64,000 nt of DNA from Candidatus Marinacidobacterales bacterium (GTDB lineage Bacteria; Acidobacteriota; Vicinamibacteria; Marinacidobacterales; SMYC01), in the NCBI GenBank assembly GCA_965237955.1, contig OZ250169.1, positions 7,424,001-7,488,000 on the forward strand, in the 5' to 3' direction. Under the pieces are notes generated by a model. It ran no database searches. It was not told where the DNA came from and was given only the letters and a program-made list of their open reading frames with translations. Below, in pieces: positions 42,461-57,283 of the stretch (its first letter is position 1; each line of letters opens with the position of its first letter). Both the position numbers and the translations under genes were made by a program.

Positions 42461-42572
42461 CTAGTCCCCTGGATCTTTGATTGATGACAAAAGTCTAAAC
42501 TAGCGTGCGTGGTCAAGGTTCGCTGAAAACAGAGGGAGAAGAGCTCACCGAGCTCGTTTGACTCCCGAGTGC

Positions 42573-43659
42573 TGCCTTGGTGCACAACTCGCGATCTCGG
42601 TCCACAATTGTCCTTTACTCACGGATTCGAGGTTCCCCATGAGCATTTTCAAACGCACTCAGCGGAAGTATGTGAAGAAGGCCTATCGCGTGAGGAATTG
42701 GCGTGAATATGAGGCGGGTCTACGCAACCGTGGGAGCCTGACCGTCTGGATCTCGCTCACCGCCGGCAAGCTTGTGAACTGGGACGCGCCCCGGCCGAGG
42801 AGGAGGAACCCGGGCCGTCAACGCAAGTACTCGAACCACGCCATCGAGACGGCTGTCACCCTGGGCATGGTGTTTCATCTGTCATCTAGGCAGAGCGAGG
42901 GATTGCTGCGATCGTTGTTCGCTCTGATGAAGCTAGACAATGATGTGCCCGATCACACCACGATCTCGAGGCGCAAGGCGAAGCTGGGTAAGGTCCCCTT
43001 CTACCAAGACAAGCAGAAGACGCCGTTGCACATCTTGATCGACAGCAGCGGTCTCGCTGTCCACGCCGGCCAGCTGCGCAGAGCACCAAAGAGCAGGGAC
43101 TATCGCAAGCTCCATCTGTGTGTCGACGAGCAGAGTGGCGAAGTCGTCGCCGGCGAGCTGACGAGCAAAAGAGCCCGCGATTCATCGCGGGTTGCATCGC
43201 TTGTCGGACAGATCGACAGTCCCATCTCATCGGCCAGAGCTGACACCGCATACGACGCCGGCGGCGTCTATGAGGCAATCGAGAATCACAGCGCTCATTG
43301 CTCGCCGAGGGTGCTGATACCGCCGCGCAAGGGCGCCCAGCTCGCATCGGGGCCGGCGAGCAGCCGACAGCGCAATCGCAACATTGCAGCACAAGCTCGG
43401 CTCGGCAAACGAAAGTGGCACACAGAATCGGGCTACAGCAAACGGAGCAAAGTCGAGACAACGTTCCATCGCTACAAGGCTATCGTGGGCTCAGCGATGC
43501 GAGCGAGAGGGTTGGCGGCACAGAGAGTCGAGGCAAGGATCGGGTGCAAGATTCTCAACACGATGACGGCGCTCGGGATGCCTGATAGCGAGATGATCGG
43601 ATGATGGGAGTCGGGGCCAAGCGAGCTCTCGGCCTCTATCGGAGTTGTGCACCAAGGCA
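42573..43659 (+). mobile_element. IS5-family (IS903 group) element
   Basis: IRs TGCCTTGGTGCACAACTC / GAGTTGTGCACCAAGGCA. Confidence 0.9.
42639..43604 (+). CDS. IS903-group transposase
   Basis: YRVRNWREYEAGLRNRGSLTVW, PDHTTISRR, IDSSGL, ADTAYD, SGYSKRSKVET. Confidence 0.93.
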   Translation: MSIFKRTQRKYVKKAYRVRNWREYEAGLRNRGSLTVWISLTAGKLVNWDAPRPRRRNPGRQRKYSNHAIETAVTLGMVFHLSSRQSEGLLRSLFALMKLDNDVPDHTTISRRKAKLGKVPFYQDKQKTPLHILIDSSGLAVHAGQLRRAPKSRDYRKLHLCVDEQSGEVVAGELTSKRARDSSRVASLVGQIDSPISSARADTAYDAGGVYEAIENHSAHCSPRVLIPPRKGAQLASGPASSRQRNRNIAAQARLGKRKWHTESGYSKRSKVETTFHRYKAIVGSAMRARGLAAQRVEARIGCKILNTMTALGMPDSEMIG

Positions 43660-43669
43660 CCATGCCGGC

Positions 43670-44692
43670 ATGATTTCGTCGTTGGTTCCCGCTCTCATCT
43701 CTGCCTTCAAGGCTCGTCGCGAGCTGGCTCTCGAGAATGTCGCTCTTCGGCAGCAGCTCGCCGTCCTCCGCCGTTCCGTGAAACGGCCGCGGCTCTCGAA
43801 GGTCGAGCGCTGGTTTTGGGTGCTATTGCGCAGAATCTGGACTGACTGGGAGAGCGTCCTCGTCATCGTGAAACCTGAGACGGTCATCCGCTGGCACCGT
43901 TGTGGGTTCGGACGATATTGGACTTGGAAGAGCCGACGGCGTAGGCCCGGACGACCAAGCGTCGCTCCCGAAATACGTGAGCTGATTCGGAACATGAGCA
44001 GGGCCAACCCTCTCTGGGGAGCTCCCCGCGTGCATGGCGAGCTGGCGAAGCTAGGCATCTCCATTTCCCAGGCAGCCGTCTCCAAGTATATGGTTCGTCA
44101 TCGCACCCCACCGTCCCATACTTGGCGGAGCTTTCTCGATAATCATGCAAACGACTTGGTGTCGCTCGACTTTTTCACTTTGCCGACCGCAACCTTCAGA
44201 GTTCTGTTCGTCTTCATCGTCCTTCGCCACGACCGTCGCCGTATCGTTCATTTCAATGTCACCGAGCATCCTTCCGCCGAGTGGACGGCGCAGCAAATGG
44301 TCGATGCTTTTCCATGGGACACCGCGCCTCGGTACCTGGTACGGGACCGAGACCAGACCTACGGAGCGTACTTCGATAGTCGCGTCGACGGTCTTGGGAT
44401 AGAGCAGGTCCTTACCGCACCGCGCTCCCCGTGGCAGAATCCATTCGTCGAAAGGATGATCGGCTCCATTCGACGTGAGTGTCTCGACCACGTGATCGTC
44501 CTTGATGAGCGGCACCTGGGGCGAATCCTACGCAAATACGTCGACTACTATCATTCGTGCCGGACTCATTTGTCGCTTGAGAAGGACGCGCCTGAGCCTC
44601 GCCGGGTAGAGTCACCGGCGATGGGCAAAGTGAGAGCCATTCCAAAGGTCGGTGGTCTCCATCATTATTACACTCGACACGCCGCTGCTTGA
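43670..44692 (+). CDS. Integrase-core (rve) domain transposase
   Basis: ENVALRQQL, VKPETVIRWHR, NPLWGAPRVHGEL, DFF, PWQNPFVERMIGSIRRECLDH. Confidence 0.9.
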   Translation: MISSLVPALISAFKARRELALENVALRQQLAVLRRSVKRPRLSKVERWFWVLLRRIWTDWESVLVIVKPETVIRWHRCGFGRYWTWKSRRRRPGRPSVAPEIRELIRNMSRANPLWGAPRVHGELAKLGISISQAAVSKYMVRHRTPPSHTWRSFLDNHANDLVSLDFFTLPTATFRVLFVFIVLRHDRRRIVHFNVTEHPSAEWTAQQMVDAFPWDTAPRYLVRDRDQTYGAYFDSRVDGLGIEQVLTAPRSPWQNPFVERMIGSIRRECLDHVIVLDERHLGRILRKYVDYYHSCRTHLSLEKDAPEPRRVESPAMGKVRAIPKVGGLHHYYTRHAAA

Positions 44693-45560: not shown

Positions 45561-46340
45561 CTAGGAGTCCTGGCCGGTATTCATGTCCCAGATCAGCTTG
45601 AGGCCGTCCAACGTCAGCCAGGGAGCGCGGAATTCGATGACATCCGTTTCGGCCGCGATGAGATCCTCCAAGCCCCCGGTTCCGATGATCTTGGTCTCCG
45701 CTCCCAGTTCCGCCTTAAAGCGAGCCACCATACCTTCCACCAGTCCCACGTAGCCGTATACAAGGCCCGATTGGATGGCGGCAACAGTATTCCGGCCGAT
45801 GGCGGCTTCCGGCGGCGCGAGTTCCACGCGCGGCAGCTTAGCCGCTCGGGCAAAAAGCGCTTCGGCTGCCAGGTCGATGCCGGGCGCGATCGCTCCACCC
45901 AGGTACTCTCCTTCTGCAGATATCGCGTCGAAGGTGGTGGCCGTGCCGAAGTCGACCACACAGGCCGGCGTTCCGTAGAAGTGCCGCACGGCAACCGCAT
46001 CTGCCACTCGGTCCGCGCCGAGGGCGTTCTTCGGATCCTCGTAGCGGATGCTGAGTCCGGTTTTCACGCCGGCATCGATCACGAGCGGCTCGGTGCCCAG
46101 GTAGCCCGCCGCAGCCTGAACGAAGGTTCCCGTCAGTGGTGGTACGGCGGAGGCCAGCGCACAGCCCTTGATTTGCTCTGCGGAACAACCGGCGTGCTCC
46201 AGCAGCCCCAGTATTTGGAGTCCGTATTCATCGGGCATACGGTCATGAACGGTGGCAAGTCGCCAGGCGTTCACGCGCTCGTCCCCATCGTAAAGACCCA
46301 GTGTGATATTCGTATTTCCGATGTCAATCATCAACAGCAT
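45561..46340 (-). CDS. coaX: Type III pantothenate kinase
   Basis: IDIGNTN, LGADR, VVDFGTATTFD, GGAIAPG, TGG. Confidence 0.95.
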   Translation of the reverse strand: MLLMIDIGNTNITLGLYDGDERVNAWRLATVHDRMPDEYGLQILGLLEHAGCSAEQIKGCALASAVPPLTGTFVQAAAGYLGTEPLVIDAGVKTGLSIRYEDPKNALGADRVADAVAVRHFYGTPACVVDFGTATTFDAISAEGEYLGGAIAPGIDLAAEALFARAAKLPRVELAPPEAAIGRNTVAAIQSGLVYGYVGLVEGMVARFKAELGAETKIIGTGGLEDLIAAETDVIEFRAPWLTLDGLKLIWDMNTGQDS

Positions 46341-46347
46341 AAGGACC

Positions 46348-47187
46348 TCACTCTTCTCCCACCGTCATGGTGTCGATGAGACGGGTCTTTCCTATGAACA
46401 CGGCCATGGAAAGCAAAGCTCGCTCGCTCGGCCCATGCAGCTCTTCGAGCGTTTCGGGGTCTGCCACCGAGGCGTATTCCGCCCGGGCGAGCGGTTCGGT
46501 CGCCAAGAGGGTCTCCATCTCCGTCCTCAGTCTGTCCGCTTCTCGCTCCCCGGTGTTGAACAATTCGTCTGCAGCGGATAGTGCACGGTAGAGCACCGTC
46601 GCTGCCTGCCGCTCCTCCGGATTAAGGTAGGAATTTCGGCTCGACATCGCCAAATCGTCCGCTTCACGAAGCGTGGGGCACACGATCACCTCGATTGGAA
46701 AATTGAGATCCCGTACCAAGCGACGAATCACGATCGCTTGCTGGGCATCCTTCTGACCAAAATACGCTCGATCGGGCTGGAAACTATTAAATAGCTTAGT
46801 CACCACGGTTGCCACGCCTCGAAAATGCCCCTCCCGGATCTCTCCCTCCAGATAACGAGACAGCTCTTCCACCTCCACCCAGGTCTGATACCCAGGGCCG
46901 TACATCTCAGCCTTTGTCGGCGTCCACACCAAATCGACCTTTTCCGCGCTAAGTAGATCCAGGTCTTGTTCTAGATCCACTGGGTAGGTGTCCAGATCCT
47001 CCGTCGGCCCGAACTGGGCGGGGTTGACAAAAATGCTCACTCCAACGCTTGCACACTCTTGCTTAGCTCGTCGTACCAGTGAGAGATGTCCCTCGTGGAG
47101 GAATCCCATGGTGGGTACCAGACCCACATGGTTGGCCAGGGATTTCCTTGTCGCACGCAGCTCAGCCAAACTCTCCACCACTTTCAT
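46348..47187 (-). CDS. panC: Pantoate--beta-alanine ligase
   Basis: VPTMGFLHEGH, SIFVNPAQF, HFRGVATVV, FGQKDAQQ, MSSRN. Confidence 0.96.
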   Translation of the reverse strand: MKVVESLAELRATRKSLANHVGLVPTMGFLHEGHLSLVRRAKQECASVGVSIFVNPAQFGPTEDLDTYPVDLEQDLDLLSAEKVDLVWTPTKAEMYGPGYQTWVEVEELSRYLEGEIREGHFRGVATVVTKLFNSFQPDRAYFGQKDAQQAIVIRRLVRDLNFPIEVIVCPTLREADDLAMSSRNSYLNPEERQAATVLYRALSAADELFNTGEREADRLRTEMETLLATEPLARAEYASVADPETLEELHGPSERALLSMAVFIGKTRLIDTMTVGEE

Positions 47188-48107
47188 CTTTGCTCACCCG
47201 TGGACCCCTCAACCTTTGCGCGCACCAGATTCCATAGCGACCAATTGACCGGGGTCAGTACGCCGCAGCGCTCTCCTTCTCGCACGACGGCTCCATTGAT
47301 GGCGTCTACTTCAGTTGGAGCACCCCTCAGAATATCTTGGAGCATGGAAGATTCGTTCTCGGCGGTTCGCGTGGCGACTCCCTCCACTTCATGGGACGGA
47401 TCGCCGTACGGGAGCTGAATCCCTTGCGCCTCCGCCACTCGGGCCGTTTCAATAGCGGCCTCGTTCATGAGTCGCCGCGCATGGGGACGCTCCAGCAGCT
47501 CACCGTTCCGAACGTCCAAGAGCGCCGTAAGCGCATTGATTCCGGCATTCACGGCCAGCTTGCCCCACACCAGACTTACTAGGTTGGGCGCGGCGTGGAT
47601 TTCGAATCTAGCAGTCTCTAACAAATCCACCAGCGGTTCCAAGCGTGGGTGCGGCGCCACGTAGGTTGGTCCTGCTCCGCCCGCCCGGAACTTGCCTGGA
47701 CCCAGCAGCGAAGCGCCGGACGTGGTAACTCCTAGCGCGGCGCGCTCGGCGCCAATGGCAGCCCCCAAAACCTCGATATTGCCCAGCCCATTCTGCAGAG
47801 TAAGTGCCACTCCCTCGGGTGCCAGGCATTTGGCAAGCATGTTTCCCGCGGCTTCAGTTTGCCAGGACTTGACCAGCACTAGGGCGCTCTGCGCCCCTTT
47901 GCATTCCGACGGATCATCCGTTACCTTCACGCTGACGGTTAGGGTCTCGCCGTTCTCTTGAAGTCGAATTCCATGAACTCGTAGCGCTTCAAGTCCCTCC
48001 GCCCACCCACCGAGGAGCGTCACTTCTGCGTGCGAAGCTAGCCGGCCTCCAAAGAGGCCGGCCATGGCTCCCGTTCCTACGATAAGGATCGACGGCTTAT
48101 TGCTCAA
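47184..48107 (-). CDS. panE: 2-dehydropantoate 2-reductase
   Basis: GTGAMA, VKS, LQNGLG, W.KL.VN..IN, SSMLQD....TEVDAING. Confidence 0.93.
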   Translation of the reverse strand: MSNKPSILIVGTGAMAGLFGGRLASHAEVTLLGGWAEGLEALRVHGIRLQENGETLTVSVKVTDDPSECKGAQSALVLVKSWQTEAAGNMLAKCLAPEGVALTLQNGLGNIEVLGAAIGAERAALGVTTSGASLLGPGKFRAGGAGPTYVAPHPRLEPLVDLLETARFEIHAAPNLVSLVWGKLAVNAGINALTALLDVRNGELLERPHARRLMNEAAIETARVAEAQGIQLPYGDPSHEVEGVATRTAENESSMLQDILRGAPTEVDAINGAVVREGERCGVLTPVNWSLWNLVRAKVEGSTGEQR

Positions 48108-48122
48108 TGCGGTTGTTGGTCG

Positions 48123-49004
48123 CTAATGCCCTCTTCCATTCAGCCACTCCTCTAAGCGTACCCAGTCCTCGTCCGGCATTTCGACCGTATGCTCTTGAGC
48201 TGGGAACTGCCCGGATTCGACATCGTCCTTGTAGGCCGAGATCGCCCGCCCCATCTTGCCGTGGAAGTCGGCATATTTTTTCACGAAGCGAGGTGTGTAT
48301 TGATCGAACAGACCCAGAATGTCGTAGGTAACCAGCACCTGCCCATCACAACCCGCCCCTGCGCCAATCCCGATGGTCGGGATCTCCAACCGCTCCGACA
48401 CTAACTCTCCAAGCCGCGCGGGTATGTTTTCCAGCACGATCGAAAAGCATCCGGCCTCTTCGAGGATCTGCGCGTCTTCCAGCAGATGAATTGCGGAATC
48501 GGAAGTCTTCGCCTGAGGGCCGAATCCTCCCAATTGGTGTACCGATTGGGGAGTTAGGCCAAGGTGACCCTGCACGGGGATCCCGGAACCCACGGTGGCT
48601 CGAATCGCGTCGGCGCGTTCCCGACCGCCCTCCAACTTGACCGCATCCATGCCGCCTTCCTTCAAGAAGCGCCCGGCGTTGCGCACCGCTTCTTCCACCG
48701 AGGCCTGATAGGACATGAACGGCATGTCGCCGATAAGCAGCGCATATTTGGCCCCGCGCGCCACCGGCTTACAGTGATGTAGCATGTCCTCCATGGTCAC
48801 CGGCAACGTATTGTCATACCCGAGCACAACCATGCCGAGCGAATCCCCGACCAGGATGGAATCGATCCCGGCGCGATCCACAGCCGATGCAACGGCATAG
48901 TCATAGGCTGTTAGCATGGTGAGGATCTCACCACGCGCCGCCTTTAGGCGGAATGTGTTCGTAGTGATTTTCTTGCGTTCCCTGGGGGGTGCTGCGGTTG
49001 ACAT
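48123..49004 (-). CDS. panB: 3-methyl-2-oxobutanoate hydroxymethyltransferase
   Basis: MLTAYD, LVGDSLGM, DMPFMSY, VKLEGG, GHLGLTPQ, IGIGAG..CDGQVLV. Confidence 0.96.
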   Translation of the reverse strand: MSTAAPPRERKKITTNTFRLKAARGEILTMLTAYDYAVASAVDRAGIDSILVGDSLGMVVLGYDNTLPVTMEDMLHHCKPVARGAKYALLIGDMPFMSYQASVEEAVRNAGRFLKEGGMDAVKLEGGRERADAIRATVGSGIPVQGHLGLTPQSVHQLGGFGPQAKTSDSAIHLLEDAQILEEAGCFSIVLENIPARLGELVSERLEIPTIGIGAGAGCDGQVLVTYDILGLFDQYTPRFVKKYADFHGKMGRAISAYKDDVESGQFPAQEHTVEMPDEDWVRLEEWLNGRGH

Positions 49005-49145: not shown

Positions 49146-49610
49146 GGCGTTGGTGCATGAATCAGTTCGGGACACGCACGGATTCTATTGGCGGCCCAAT
49201 TTACTCCCCGACGATCGCTTGTGATTCAGGCTTGCCCAGCTCAGCCATCCGGTTCAATACATTGCACCGATCCTTGCCCCCTGCTTTTGCGATTCGTAGC
49301 CGCGCGCACGAAGGCTGTTTCCGAGCATGCGCTTGTACCTGAAGAAAAGATTCTCGACGGCGCCCTGTCCGCCCTGTCCGCCCTGTCGACGATACCGTGA
49401 CTCCCGCTCGAAGCCTTGGCGCCCGACTTTGCGAATCGTCTCGAGGGTCGCGTTCCGCTGCGCCCACGTGCCCTCGGCGCCGTCCAAAGGCACCGCCCCT
49501 CGTCCGCGGTGCCGACCTCACCGAGCAGCTCGTACACCGACCGAGTATCGTAGGCCCCATCGGCTGTGAAACGTCGGATCGGAGAGTCTTGCCGGTTGCA
49601 CCAAAGCCTC
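49146..49610 (-). pseudogene. IS903-group transposase remnant
   Basis: FTADGAYD, ENLFFRYKR, NVLNRMAELGKP across frames; IR GGCGTTGGTGCATGAATC. Confidence 0.8.
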
Positions 49611-49644
49611 ATCAAGCTAGAATCGATACTGGAGGTTGGCATCG

Positions 49645-50982
49645 ATGCGTAGAGTCGTGGTCGCTATCTTTTTGTGCCTGGTCGCGACGTGGGCATCGTC
49701 CGAGGACAACTGGACACGCTGGCGCGGACCGCGGATGGACGGGATCGCCCACGACAGCAATCCCCCGATCGAATGGAGCGAGACGAACAACGTCAAATGG
49801 AAAGTCGCCGTTCCCGGACACGGATCCTCGACGCCGATTATCTGGGGCGATCTGCTCTACGTGCTGACCGCGATACCGACCGACGGATCGACGCCGCCTC
49901 CCCCACCGCACAGGAATCCTGATGCCACGCAAGGTCGAGGCCGCCGTCGCGGGCGCGGGGCGGGCCCGGCTGCGCCGGCTGATGTCGAGCAGGAGTTCAA
50001 GCTTCTCGCCATGAAGCGCTCGGATGGAAGCGTCGTCTGGGAACGCACCGCGACGAAAGCGGTCCCGCACGAAGGCAAGCAACGGAACAATAGTTACGCG
50101 TCGTCGTCGGCATCAACCGACGGCGAGGTCATCATCGCCTATTTCGGATCCTGGGGGCTGTACTGCTACAACATGGAGGGCAATCTCGAGTGGAGCAAGG
50201 ACCTCGGCGACATGTACACGCGCCGCGGTTTCGGCGAAGGCGCAACCCCGGCGCTTCACGGTGACACCATCGTCGTTCAATGGGACGACGAACGGCAGTC
50301 GTTCATCGCCGCGTTCGACAAGAACACCGGCGAAGAGCGATGGCGAACCGATCGCGATGAAGTCTCGTCGTGGGGAACTCCGCTCGTCGTCGAGCACGAC
50401 GGCCGGTTTCAGGTGATTGCCACGGGCACGAAGAACGTGACTAGCTACGATCTCGAGACGGGCGACGTCGTGTGGTATGGCCCGGGGCTCACGTCGAATG
50501 CTATCCCCTCTTCCGTCGAGCGCGACGGTATCGTCTACGCGACCAGCGGTTTCCGCGGCAACCGAGCGCTCGCCGTTCGCCTGGCTGATGCCAAAGGAGA
50601 CATCACCGGCACCTCGGCAATTTTGTGGCAGCTCGACCGCAACACACCGTACGTGCCGTCGCCGCTTTTGTACGAGGACATCCTCTATCTCGTGAAGAGC
50701 AACAACGCGATTCTCACGGCCGTCGACCCGGCCACAGGACAAGCGCACTACGGTCCGGTTCGACTCGACGGTATCTTCGAGATTTACGCTTCGCCGGTGG
50801 GCGTCGCCGGCAACGTCATCATTCTCGGGCGAGACGGCAATGCTCTCGTTCTCGAGAACGGGCCCAAGCTCAAGGTCCTGGCCGAGAACTCATTAGACGA
50901 CGGCTTCGACGCATCACCAGCGTTCTCCGGCGACGAGATGTACCTCCGGGGCTATCGCTACTTGTACCGAATCTCTAAGTAG
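49645..50982 (+). CDS. PQQ-binding-like beta-propeller protein (BamB-like)
   Basis: NW..WRGP..DG, N.KWK..VPG.G.STPIIWGD, YVPSP, ASP repeats. Confidence 0.88.
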   Translation: MRRVVVAIFLCLVATWASSEDNWTRWRGPRMDGIAHDSNPPIEWSETNNVKWKVAVPGHGSSTPIIWGDLLYVLTAIPTDGSTPPPPPHRNPDATQGRGRRRGRGAGPAAPADVEQEFKLLAMKRSDGSVVWERTATKAVPHEGKQRNNSYASSSASTDGEVIIAYFGSWGLYCYNMEGNLEWSKDLGDMYTRRGFGEGATPALHGDTIVVQWDDERQSFIAAFDKNTGEERWRTDRDEVSSWGTPLVVEHDGRFQVIATGTKNVTSYDLETGDVVWYGPGLTSNAIPSSVERDGIVYATSGFRGNRALAVRLADAKGDITGTSAILWQLDRNTPYVPSPLLYEDILYLVKSNNAILTAVDPATGQAHYGPVRLDGIFEIYASPVGVAGNVIILGRDGNALVLENGPKLKVLAENSLDDGFDASPAFSGDEMYLRGYRYLYRISK

Positions 50983-51628
50983 GACCCGTCGCGAACTGCT
51001 CACGCAGAACCTCGTCGACTTCGTCGGGGTCGAAGTAGAAGGGTCCGATGCCGCCTTTGTATACGATACGTCCGCTGGTGTCGATGACGTAGAACCGCTC
51101 CGGCCACGCGGCGTAACACGCCATGGCGGTGTTCTCGATGTCGTCTAGAAGTGTCTCGGTTTCGACGTCCATCTGATCGACGAACGCTCGTGCAAGCTCC
51201 CGGCGCTCGTCGATGGTCGTCGGCTGCGTATAAACGACGCCCGTGTCTTCGTTATCCGCCATTTGCCATTCGTCCTCGGGATGCGCCTCCTTGACGTACA
51301 CGATGACGAAATGGGCGACTTCCTTGTACTTCACCGAAAGCTCTTCGATGCGCGCCAACCTGGCGCGAAACGGCGGTCACGTGTAGCTACCAAAAGTAAG
51401 AACGAGCGGTTTTTCCGCGTAGAGCTCTGAGATGCGTCGCGTCCCGCCACCGTCCATCGTCAAGAGCTCGACGTCGGGCGCGAGGTCGCCTACCCGAAGC
51501 GAGCCCTCGGTACGGATGTCGTACTCGTTGATTCGGATCCACGCGCGTTTCGTGGCCTCGAAGTAGCCCCAGCCTCCGAGCGCGAGGACGATGAGCGCTA
51601 CCGCACCAACTCCAATCCATTTCTTCAT
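50975..51628 (-). CDS. Iodothyronine-deiodinase-like thioredoxin-fold selenoprotein (Sec at TGA 51377-51379), 217 aa
   Basis: ORFs 51377-51628 and 50975-51358 share a frame: PLVLTFGSYT-TGA-PPFRARL; also VYVKEAHPEDEW and YAAWPERFYVI. Confidence 0.88.
51351..51367 (-). promoter_or_regulatory. Putative bacterial SECIS hairpin
   Basis: CGCGCCA-GGT-TGGCGCG starting 10 nt after the UGA. Confidence 0.75.
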
Positions 51629-51688
51629 CGAAGTCTCCCTCCTGCCGAGTAGCGCTCAGCCTACAGAGCAGGCGGGCGATTGGCAACG

Positions 51689-52066
51689 CTACCGGCTCAC
51701 GATCCCTACACGTTCGACGCCGTTACCGCGCGCAATGTCGAGAACGGCGATCACTTCCGCGTAGCGCAGCCGTTCGTGCGCTCTCAAGAACAAGCTCTTG
51801 TCGGTGCGGGTTTCAAGGATGTCACGGATGCGCATCGGAAGCTCGTCCCGGGCAATCGCTTGCCGGTTGATGGTGACGTTTCCGTCGCGATCGATATCCA
51901 ACACCAGAGCCTCGGTGGGTGCATCAGGCGGTGCCGTGTCCGTTTCGGGGAGGACGACGTCCAGACCCATCTGGGACAGAGGCGTGGCGATCATGAACAG
52001 GATGAGCATCACGAGCATGACATCGATGATGGGCGTCACGTTGATATCACGGTGCATCCTTTGCAT
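51689..52066 (-). CDS. ExbD/TolR family protein
   Basis: INVTPIIDVMLVMLILFMI; LFLRA...Y..V..VLD. Confidence 0.88.
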   Translation of the reverse strand: MQRMHRDINVTPIIDVMLVMLILFMIATPLSQMGLDVVLPETDTAPPDAPTEALVLDIDRDGNVTINRQAIARDELPMRIRDILETRTDKSLFLRAHERLRYAEVIAVLDIARGNGVERVGIVSR

Positions 52067-56721: not shown

Positions 56722-57027
56722 TTACGCCGCCGATGTCTTTTTCATCGCCTGGTGCAAATCCCAGTCGGCCTGCAGATGCATCCAGAACTGCGGCGTCATC
56801 TTGAACCGGCGCGCGAGGCGAAGTGCCGTGTCCGCGGTGACTCCCCGCTTTCCGAGGACGAGCTCGTTCAGACGATTCACGGACATTCCGAGCTGCCGTG
56901 CGGCCTCCACCTGAGTGAGACCGAGAGGCACGAGAAACTCCTCCCGCAGCATCTCACCCGGGTGTACCGCAGGCCCGAGCCACGCGGGATCACGAATGAT
57001 AGGCTTCGCAGCAGACTTCGTAGGCAT
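56722..57027 (-). CDS. higA: HigA-family antitoxin
   Basis: HPGEMLREEFL.PLGLTQ, TADTALRLAR, FWM.LQ. Confidence 0.9.
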   Translation of the reverse strand: MPTKSAAKPIIRDPAWLGPAVHPGEMLREEFLVPLGLTQVEAARQLGMSVNRLNELVLGKRGVTADTALRLARRFKMTPQFWMHLQADWDLHQAMKKTSAA

Positions 57028-57283
57028 GATTTCCCTCCCACCGGAACGTCACCCGGTACTGCTCGTTCACCCGGATGCTATGACGACCGCGCTGATTTCC
57101 CTTGAGAGCCTCTGAGCGGTTGCCTGGCGGACTGCCGAGAGCCGAGAGCCGCTGCGCGACGTCCAACATTTTCAGCTTCCGGCGGACGACCGGCCAAAGG
57201 TCTTTCGGAATGCGCCGAGCCTCTTTCGTGGAGCGCTCCCGGAACAAATCGGCCGTCGTTTCATCGGCGAACGACTGAATCAT
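56990..57283 (-). CDS. higB: HigB (RelE-like) toxin
   Basis: MI.SF.D..T, RRKL.ML, PPGN..EALKG, HSIRVN.QYRVTF. Confidence 0.9.
   Translation of the reverse strand: MIQSFADETTADLFRERSTKEARRIPKDLWPVVRRKLKMLDVAQRLSALGSPPGNRSEALKGNQRGRHSIRVNEQYRVTFRWEGNHAYEVCCEAYHS

Follow-up and report, generated by a model that had tools for sequence, protein, structure and literature searches.

Results and Discussion

A gene split by an in-frame TGA codon

The window analysed in this study is a 64,000-nucleotide stretch of the genome of a Candidatus Marinacidobacterales bacterium (contig OZ250169.1, positions 7,424,001 to 7,488,000), and the element in question is a minus-strand gene that resembles those of the animal iodothyronine deiodinases (Dio1-3) and carries an in-frame TGA codon. 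Translation table 11 splits the locus into two minus-strand open reading frames (ORFs), 51377-51628 (83 amino acids [aa]) and 50975-51358 (127 aa), and translation of TGA as selenocysteine (Sec or U) joins them into a single frame of 217 aa with only one recoded codon, U84 in FGSYT-U-PPF. This agrees with an earlier prediction made from the nucleotide sequence (hereafter, the original prediction), which held that an ORF caller had split one gene at an internal TGA located at the Sec position of deiodinases; U84 indeed aligns with the Sec/Cys of Dio3 and Dio2. The features of the locus are listed below by their positions in the window.

51638..51643, minus strand: Shine-Dalgarno-like AGGAGG, 15-10 nt 5' of the ATG
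50975..51628, minus strand: predicted Sec-type deiodinase-like gene, 217 aa, with ATG at 51628 and TAG at 50975-50977
51560..51616, minus strand: predicted single transmembrane anchor (by hydrophobicity), residues 5-23, with Lys-Lys in front
51377..51379, minus strand: in-frame TGA, putative Sec84 in S-Y-T-U-P-P-F, aligned to Dio3 Sec170
51351..51367, minus strand: hairpin resembling a selenocysteine insertion sequence (SECIS), with a 7-bp stem and a GGU loop (+17 to +19), spanning +10 to +26 relative to the UGA
51203..51298, minus strand: deiodinase-specific insertion (omega loop) with Y111, E114, H116, W121, Q135, P136 (His219 in Dio3) and R142
51116..51118, minus strand: Cys171, the only Cys of the protein and a candidate resolving cysteine, aligned to Dio3 Ala253
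51095..51106, minus strand: W175-P176-E177-R178, with E-R aligned to the Glu-Arg pair of Dio1-3

Both halves of the frame are under purifying selection when compared with an orthologue of 79% identity, the numbers of identical, synonymous and non-synonymous codons being 36/29/18 before the TGA and 61/42/30 after it. The TGA is spanned by contigs of three other studies, by which an assembly error as its source is ruled out; there is no variant at the TGA among the variants listed, and one of these contigs has 0 differences across 51321-51745. No promoter or terminator consensus was found. A contig from an RNA run over 50860-51136 (depth 2.85) was rejected as evidence of expression because it covers the 3' ends that two convergent genes have in common and strand information is absent.

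Selenocysteine decoding

The genome encodes tRNA-Sec, selA (544 bits), selB (366 bits) and selD (275 bits), with all of the protein models above their cut-offs. For the comparison of homologues, the best 80 each were taken from 563 genome loci and from 326 metagenome loci, the latter retrieved with a natural Cys form as the query, and 11 loci from relatives were added; the resulting 171 loci gave 164 distinct domains after the removal of duplicates and of rows without an aligned residue at position 175. The codon at the Sec position was TGA in 158 of these, TGC or TGT (Cys) in 5 and TGG (Trp) in 1, and Cys occupied this position in 129/142 more distant representatives. The claim of a selenoprotein in the original prediction is thus supported both by the machinery and by homologues with TGA or Cys at the site. 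The closest named relatives among the best 80 of 563 genome loci are Ca. Marinacidobacterales (Acidobacteriota). An orthologue with 56-79% identity is present in 14 of 40 relatives, with TGA in all of them and selA in 14/14; selA was also detected in 45 (42 above the cut-off) of 50 further TGA genomes, which were sampled from 79 and are all metagenome-assembled genomes, and in one Cys-form genome.

A genome-wide scan for TGA read-through, in which a coding signal and a hairpin were required, yielded 758 candidates, among which the gene ranked 11th and its paralogue 1st. When 17 candidates picked by eye were profiled, 10 matched known types (peroxiredoxin-like, DsbA-like, formate dehydrogenase, ArsM, AhpD-like or UXX-star models), 1 was an M16 peptidase, 2 had the appearance of ordinary gene ends and 4 were unmatched. 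Because the candidates match many Sec-type models, Sec seems to be widely used by this organism; at least four other TGA-containing peroxiredoxin-like genes are present in its genome.

Several sequences met in these searches are of separate interest. The M16-type peptidase gene (L221, G000:C1:1370190-1371239; pitrilysin/YfmH-like match) has an in-frame TGA in GDYD-U-DEL with a strong coding signal on both sides, and it could represent a selenoprotein that belongs to none of the usual redox families. No NCBIfam match was obtained for two related ORFs with W-U-P-L (L222 and L223, G000:C1:5874459 and 2331049), which may resemble DUF3179-type selenoproteins. Trp is found at the Sec position in P0240, P0258 and P0266, on contigs of ~1 kb, where it probably reflects TGA under another code; Cys is present at position 132 in two of the three, and they may be protist deiodinase-like selenoproteins.

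The original prediction further claimed a 7-bp G-loop hairpin starting 10 nt after the UGA with bacterial SECIS geometry. The geometry is as claimed, and a small apical loop containing G is a published feature of bacterial SECIS elements (PMC1088965), but the stability of the hairpin by itself was no better than that of shuffled sequences (z of -0.3 to -0.7 in three short folds and +0.6 in a 131-nt fold, not significant), nor did it stand out from synonymous recoding of this gene (p 0.24). The significance of the hairpin comes not from stability but from its conservation across Sec forms. A stem of at least 4 bp with its centre between +17.5 and +23.5 occurs in 120/139 distinct Sec forms, with ~27% expected from synonymous recoding, versus 0/6 non-Sec forms, the latter being one closely related group. 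This window of stem positions was widened post hoc on seeing loops at +17 to +24, after which p was 5e-7, and the two narrower windows tried first gave no difference between Sec and Cys forms (p 0.45 and p 0.21). The minimum free energy of +7 to +36, which depends on no such window, was -11.2 kcal/mol for Sec forms versus -3.3 kcal/mol for non-Sec forms. In the first set, 82/84 distinct Sec sequences folded better than their own synonymous recodings (mean z -1.6), and the pairing is kept while the encoded amino acids vary (RARLA, RRSVE, RKKIGD and RREVGY). A subgroup of 19 sequences including this gene has changes on both sides at two stem pairs, with 72.9% of cells paired, 7 cells changed on both sides and 0/500 shuffles reaching this, in a control that is inflated by sequence relatedness and in which a slide of -1 gave a similar covariation score.

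It could be argued that the TGA is a true stop, leaving a pseudogene, two small proteins or a sequencing error, since the second half has a TTG start of its own at 51358 and is listed as a protein in databases, and since the hairpin by itself does not differ significantly from shuffled sequences. Among the 120 matches listed from the protein database, 114 cover 48-59% of the protein and are C-terminal halves of 119-138 aa, which means for annotation that the branch sits in databases mostly in this form. We consider a true stop very improbable, because the TGA stands at the catalytic position in nearly all of the distinct homologues (158/164), selA accompanies it in 14/14 relatives and 45/50 further genomes, the hairpin is lost where the TGA is replaced, purifying selection acts on both halves and the same TGA recurs in the contigs of three other studies. 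Taken together, these sequence comparisons indicate that the gene is almost certainly a real selenoprotein gene, in which TGA84 would be read as Sec.

Fold, anchor and catalytic residues

The Pfam family PF00837 (T4_deiodinase) matched residues 30-210, across the TGA, with 122.5 bits versus a gathering cut-off of 27, and the best relatives of solved structure by sequence were mouse Dio3 (4TR3, E 7e-27) and Dio2 (9H48, E 2e-20), with U84 placed on their Sec/Cys. An AlphaFold model, built on an alignment of 13 sequences, had a mean confidence score (pLDDT) of 80.7. In a Foldseek search with this model, Dio2 and Dio3 occupied the first two ranks, and VIA-align gave a Z of 22.0 for each of them (173 and 183 residues aligned), the next value being 17.5. 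The deiodinase-like character claimed for the product is borne out by the Pfam match and by these top folds.

The AhpC-TSA and Redoxin families of Pfam were also above their cut-offs, and the folds that follow the two deiodinases are ResA/DsbE-type redoxins, AhpE, Bcp and Tpx (Z 16-17.5). These matches support another reading, according to which the protein is a membrane-anchored peroxiredoxin of the atypical 2-Cys type or a thiol-disulfide redoxin that uses Sec84 and Cys171, with peroxides, oxidised envelope proteins or lipids as its targets and with deiodination being an animal innovation that came with His219. Atypical 2-Cys peroxiredoxins and Cys glutathione peroxidases (Cys-GPx; Bcp/PrxQ, Tpx and AhpE) share the thioredoxin/peroxiredoxin fold with this protein (Z 16-17), but they are without the deiodinase insertion, and their Z is ~5 below that of Dio2/3. 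The CxxC/UxxC of the disulfide reductases of ResA/DsbE type is absent from the protein.

The N-terminal membrane anchor expected from the original prediction is found as a hydrophobic helix of residues 5-23 (Kyte-Doolittle mean 1.95), which lies in a helix of residues 2-35 in the model, and a hydrophobic anchor is present in 140/151 distinct homologues of suitable N-terminal length. In these 140, the net charge on the N-terminal side of the anchor exceeds that on the C-terminal side in 106, equals it in 17 and falls below it in 17, and this charge bias suggests that the anchor has an N-in/C-out orientation and that the catalytic domain probably faces outward, into the periplasm.

The predicted Y..EAH..D.W motif is present as Y111-x-x-E114-A-H116-P-x-D-x-W121. 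In all 158 Sec forms, S81, T83, Y111, E114, H116, W121, Q135, R142, W175, P176, E177 and R178 are invariant, and their counterparts in Dio3, by numbers counted along the sequence alignment, include Ser167 (S81), Thr169 (T83), Tyr197 (Y111), Glu200 (E114), His202 (H116), Trp207 (W121) and Glu259-Arg260 (E177-R178). Dio3 mutants of Ser167, Thr169, Tyr197 and Glu200 lose activity (PMC7506546), these residues have been linked to catalysis, to the anchoring of the loop and to the binding of the substrate (PMC7506546, PMC12025243, PMC11592359), and the Glu-Arg pair is the proposed site for the amino-carboxylate of the substrate in Dio1/2 (PMC11592359). Residue 177 is Glu in 158/158 sequences of the Sec branch versus 11/127 other bacterial-type representatives. 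The invariance of the deiodinase loop and of E177-R178, in a branch that is ~40-80% identical to this protein, suggests a specific ligand pocket, which speaks against a plain redoxin.

A partner cysteine at one of three sites

A new observation is a rule for the partner cysteine: each of the 158 Sec forms examined has Cys at exactly one of the positions 82, 132 and 171, and never at two of them together. Cys132, in the omega loop, occurs in 130 sequences, mostly from soil lineages; Cys171, in the helix ahead of WPER, occurs in 22 sequences including this gene; and Cys82 (SCT-U) occurs in 6. The total number of Cys residues in the catalytic domain is one in 154 Sec forms and two in 4, and partner Cys is absent at all three positions in 6/6 non-Sec forms. 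Position 82 corresponds to Cys124 of DIO1, which was shown to form a selenenyl-sulfide (PMC9141512), position 132 to Val215 of Dio3, in the neck of the omega loop next to the active site, and position 171 to Ala253 of Dio3, which precedes the loop over Sec by one helical turn. From this one-partner-Cys pattern, we infer a two-chalcogen cycle with a relocated resolving Cys, and redox turnover of the protein is thereby supported. The role of partner cysteines in the animal deiodinases is still debated (PMC9141512), and the three natural variants of the partner Cys, together with the Cys forms that have none, offer a small set for a direct test.

Variable positions of the resolving Cys are typical of atypical 2-Cys peroxiredoxins and Cys-GPx. 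In the distant Cys-type bacterial proteins, a second Cys is found at position 149, in helix alpha-D, in 84/119 and none is found in 6, and this helix is the one that holds the resolving Cys in PtGPX5 (PMC7506546), a further point for the redoxin reading.

Proposed function and its alternatives

On the analogy with Dio1-3, we tentatively propose, at a little under an even chance, that the protein acts as an outward-facing, Sec-dependent aryl dehalogenase for iodine or bromine compounds and is recycled through Cys171. The original prediction had named an extracytoplasmic reductive dehalogenase or redoxin, possibly for halogenated aromatics, and dehalogenation of such compounds is the better guess here, although neither the gene neighbours nor co-occurrence with RdhA genes lend it support. 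Thyroxine itself is probably not the natural substrate of the protein, which would more likely act on a halogenated compound of the tyrosine or phenol type. In the first step, which we regard as nearly certain, SelB and tRNA-Sec would decode UGA84 with the aid of the hairpin at +10 to +26; the N-terminal helix would then, with good probability, anchor the protein N-in/C-out. By analogy with Dio1-3, the selenolate of Sec84 may abstract X+ from an aryl halide held by H116/W121 and E177/R178, with a proton supplied by the S81-T83-Y111-E114 network. Cys171 could trap the Se-X intermediate as a selenenyl-sulfide, as the one-partner-Cys pattern would suggest, and re-reduction might be provided by a periplasmic thioredoxin fed by DsbD, the gene for which is present in the genome, or by a small thiol.

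Several points weigh against dehalogenation. A conserved operon was not found, and clustering of the ORFs of 80 loci revealed only lineage-level synteny; 64 chosen neighbour genes belong to unrelated Pfam families, with no gene of halogen metabolism among them apart from a weak QueG/RdhA-like one. RdhA is present in 8/14 relatives with the orthologue versus 7/12 relatives that lack it and belong to the same two families, which reveals no link, and the branch is common in soil Acidobacteriota and not in marine ones alone. His219 of Dio3 is replaced by Pro136 in 158/158 Sec forms, and the H174Q mutant of human DIO1 is inactive (PMC9141512); the loss of this His need not abolish activity, because the H174A mutant is active (PMC9141512). 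Residue 177 is Ile, Thr or Asp in named cnidarian and amphioxus deiodinases, and Glu177 is thus no marker of the whole family. The position of the partner Cys follows the subgroups of the tree, for which 3 changes suffice, so that the pattern reflects few independent events, and it fits a peroxidase equally well and cannot choose between this and dehalogenation. In a 2026 review, the functions of prokaryotic deiodinase-like proteins are termed largely uncharacterized (PMC13188914). The loss of Arg275 had also been considered as an argument against dehalogenation and was dropped, as Dio1 has Ala/Ser/Pro at that position.

The peroxiredoxin or redoxin reading described above is a serious possibility, somewhat less probable than dehalogenation. 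It gains from the absence of fixed pathway neighbours and from the redox role proposed in 2005 on the ground that thyroid hormones are unexpected in bacteria (PMC1088965), and it is weakened by the several Sec peroxiredoxin-like genes already in the genome, which leave less need for yet another plain peroxidase. It is less probable, and in our estimation rather doubtful, that the protein serves in envelope detoxification of reactive halogen species and electrophiles, such as hypoiodous and hypobromous acid, haloamines and alpha-halo carbonyls, in which case the Se-X and selenenyl-sulfide chemistry would be kept and the aromatic substrate dispensed with. The same Sec/partner-Cys cycle, the predicted outward location and the lack of pathway linkage would be consistent with such a role, but the aromatic and charged pocket (H116, W121, W175, E177 and R178) exceeds what a small oxidant would need.

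If dehalogenation is the true function, natural organohalogens would have a route of turnover that needs neither cobalamin nor flavin, and the protein would give a hint of how the activation of thyroid hormones arose; a peroxidase would be nothing out of the ordinary.

Relationship to known deiodinase-like proteins

Bacterial Sec/Cys deiodinase-like proteins were reported in 2005 by Zhang, Fomenko and Gladyshev, with a redox role suggested (PMC1088965). Reviews of 2022 (PMC9312934) and 2026 (PMC13188914) list the family with the motif UxxC and no known function. Our literature search, which comprised mostly titles and the starts of abstracts, with subscription journals largely missing, retrieved no assay of a bacterial member and no report of a relocated cysteine. 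The gene shares with the prokaryotic family of PMC1088965 its Pfam family (PF00837), the TGA at the catalytic site, Cys homologues and the G-loop hairpin. The UxxC motif given in PMC9312934 and PMC13188914 is not found here, the site being U-P-P-F and the sole Cys lying 87 residues downstream, and this motif describes the representative of the reviews and not the whole Pfam family. A distant deiodinase-like Sec group in the relatives (L025, L026, L028, L029 and L036-L038), with U-P-Y/F-C and a C-terminal extension, fits the UxxC motif that the reviews give.

With Dio1-3 (4TR3, 9H48), the protein has in common a transmembrane helix, a linker and a thioredoxin/peroxiredoxin core as well as S-x-T-U, the Y/E/H/W insertion and the Glu-Arg pair; U-P-P is shared with Dio2/3, and a Pro at the position of Phe258 is shared with Dio1. 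It differs from Dio3 in the replacement of His219 by Pro, of the proximal Cys168 by Tyr82, of the distal Cys239 by Thr157 and of Arg275 by Ile194, with Cys171 present instead, and from Dio1-3 in that the SECIS-like element is within the coding region and in the predicted outward orientation of the catalytic domain. The gene is thus a member of a family known since 2005, with a deiodinase-like fold and catalytic network and with three features of Dio1-3 lacking. The NCBIfam model NF038285 ("deiodinase family protein", 347 aa, planctomycete type) has a homologous catalytic domain and matched with 191 bits, but its cut-off of 250 was not reached and only model positions 177-339 were matched; a named member of it, the planctomycete protein P0375, scored 525 bits, has EF-hands and is separated from the Sec branch by the main split of the tree.

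This split was obtained when the catalytic domain was analysed in three unrooted trees (84, 64 and 65 rows chosen by hand, without vertebrate sequences, with Sec families that are split in databases under-sampled and several rows that may be protists), all of which set the Sec branch and the animal deiodinases apart from the majority of the other deiodinase-like proteins of bacteria (support 99/91, 97/97 and 100/94). One alternative to this animal-side placement, picked on sight of the tree, was rejected (p-AU 0.0015). Nesting of the animals within the Sec branch was unsupported, and monophyly of the Sec branch survived (p-AU 0.23). A second bacterial group (~350 aa, with a C-P-H-H motif) sits nearer to the animals (92/83, 65-row tree). 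The Sec branch as the exclusive closest bacterial relative of the animal deiodinases was rejected, because P0239 and P0253 cluster with proteins of Bradymonadia, Zetaproteobacteria and Marinimicrobia, nearer to the animals. A fair statement would be that, of the bacterial relatives sampled, the Sec branch is among those closest to the animal deiodinases. The branch is widespread in Acidobacteriota and also occurs in some Planctomycetota and Myxococcota. We regard it as unlikely, if conceivable, that the Sec branch is a stand-in for a bacterial ancestor of deiodinases, that is, a working aryl dehalogenase in which the resolving Cys moved between three sites; this would take in, with the same reserve, the animal architecture, the animal-side position and the correspondence of the SCT-U site to the Dio1/Dio3 site.

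Genomic context and further observations

Upstream of the gene, in the same orientation, lies a gene for ExbD, and on the other side is a convergent gene for a beta-propeller protein of the pyrroloquinoline quinone type. In three genomes of one genus, the orthologue is followed by a gene for a 4Fe-4S protein (L043:8926-9942, L044:6660-7694 and L045:6660-7691), which overlaps the stop codon of the orthologue in two of the three; its assignment as QueG or RdhA was rejected, with scores far below both cut-offs. The genome itself holds three RdhA matches above the cut-off, and the RdhA-like matches at G000:C1:3360123 and 7880419 score identically, which suggests a duplicated segment.

A second copy of the gene at G000:C1:3572755-3573395 (L129:6000-6650) has 77% aa identity and shares the TGA, the hairpin and Cys171. 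The 5.7-kb block that holds it matches G009, a genome from a different genus, at 97% identity, with inverted 533-bp repeats at its bounds and with genes for a VPS10/BNR protein and a sulfatase as flanks, and this suggests a recent transfer or assembly mixing. The second copy carries a frameshifting insertion of 2 nt that is polymorphic in other runs; of the contigs from one run, some have it and others do not. The copy in genome G013 is cut near residue 195.

Elsewhere in the window, the minus strand at 45561-49004 carries a panB-panE-panC-coaX cluster, which is possibly a mobilised pantothenate operon; it is flanked by a DDE transposase gene and an integrase-core gene (42558-44692) and by a short ORF (49241-49642), the start of which resembles this DDE transposase and which has no Pfam match. 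A pair of genes for a HigB-like toxin and a helix-turn-helix antitoxin is located at 56722-57283 on the minus strand.

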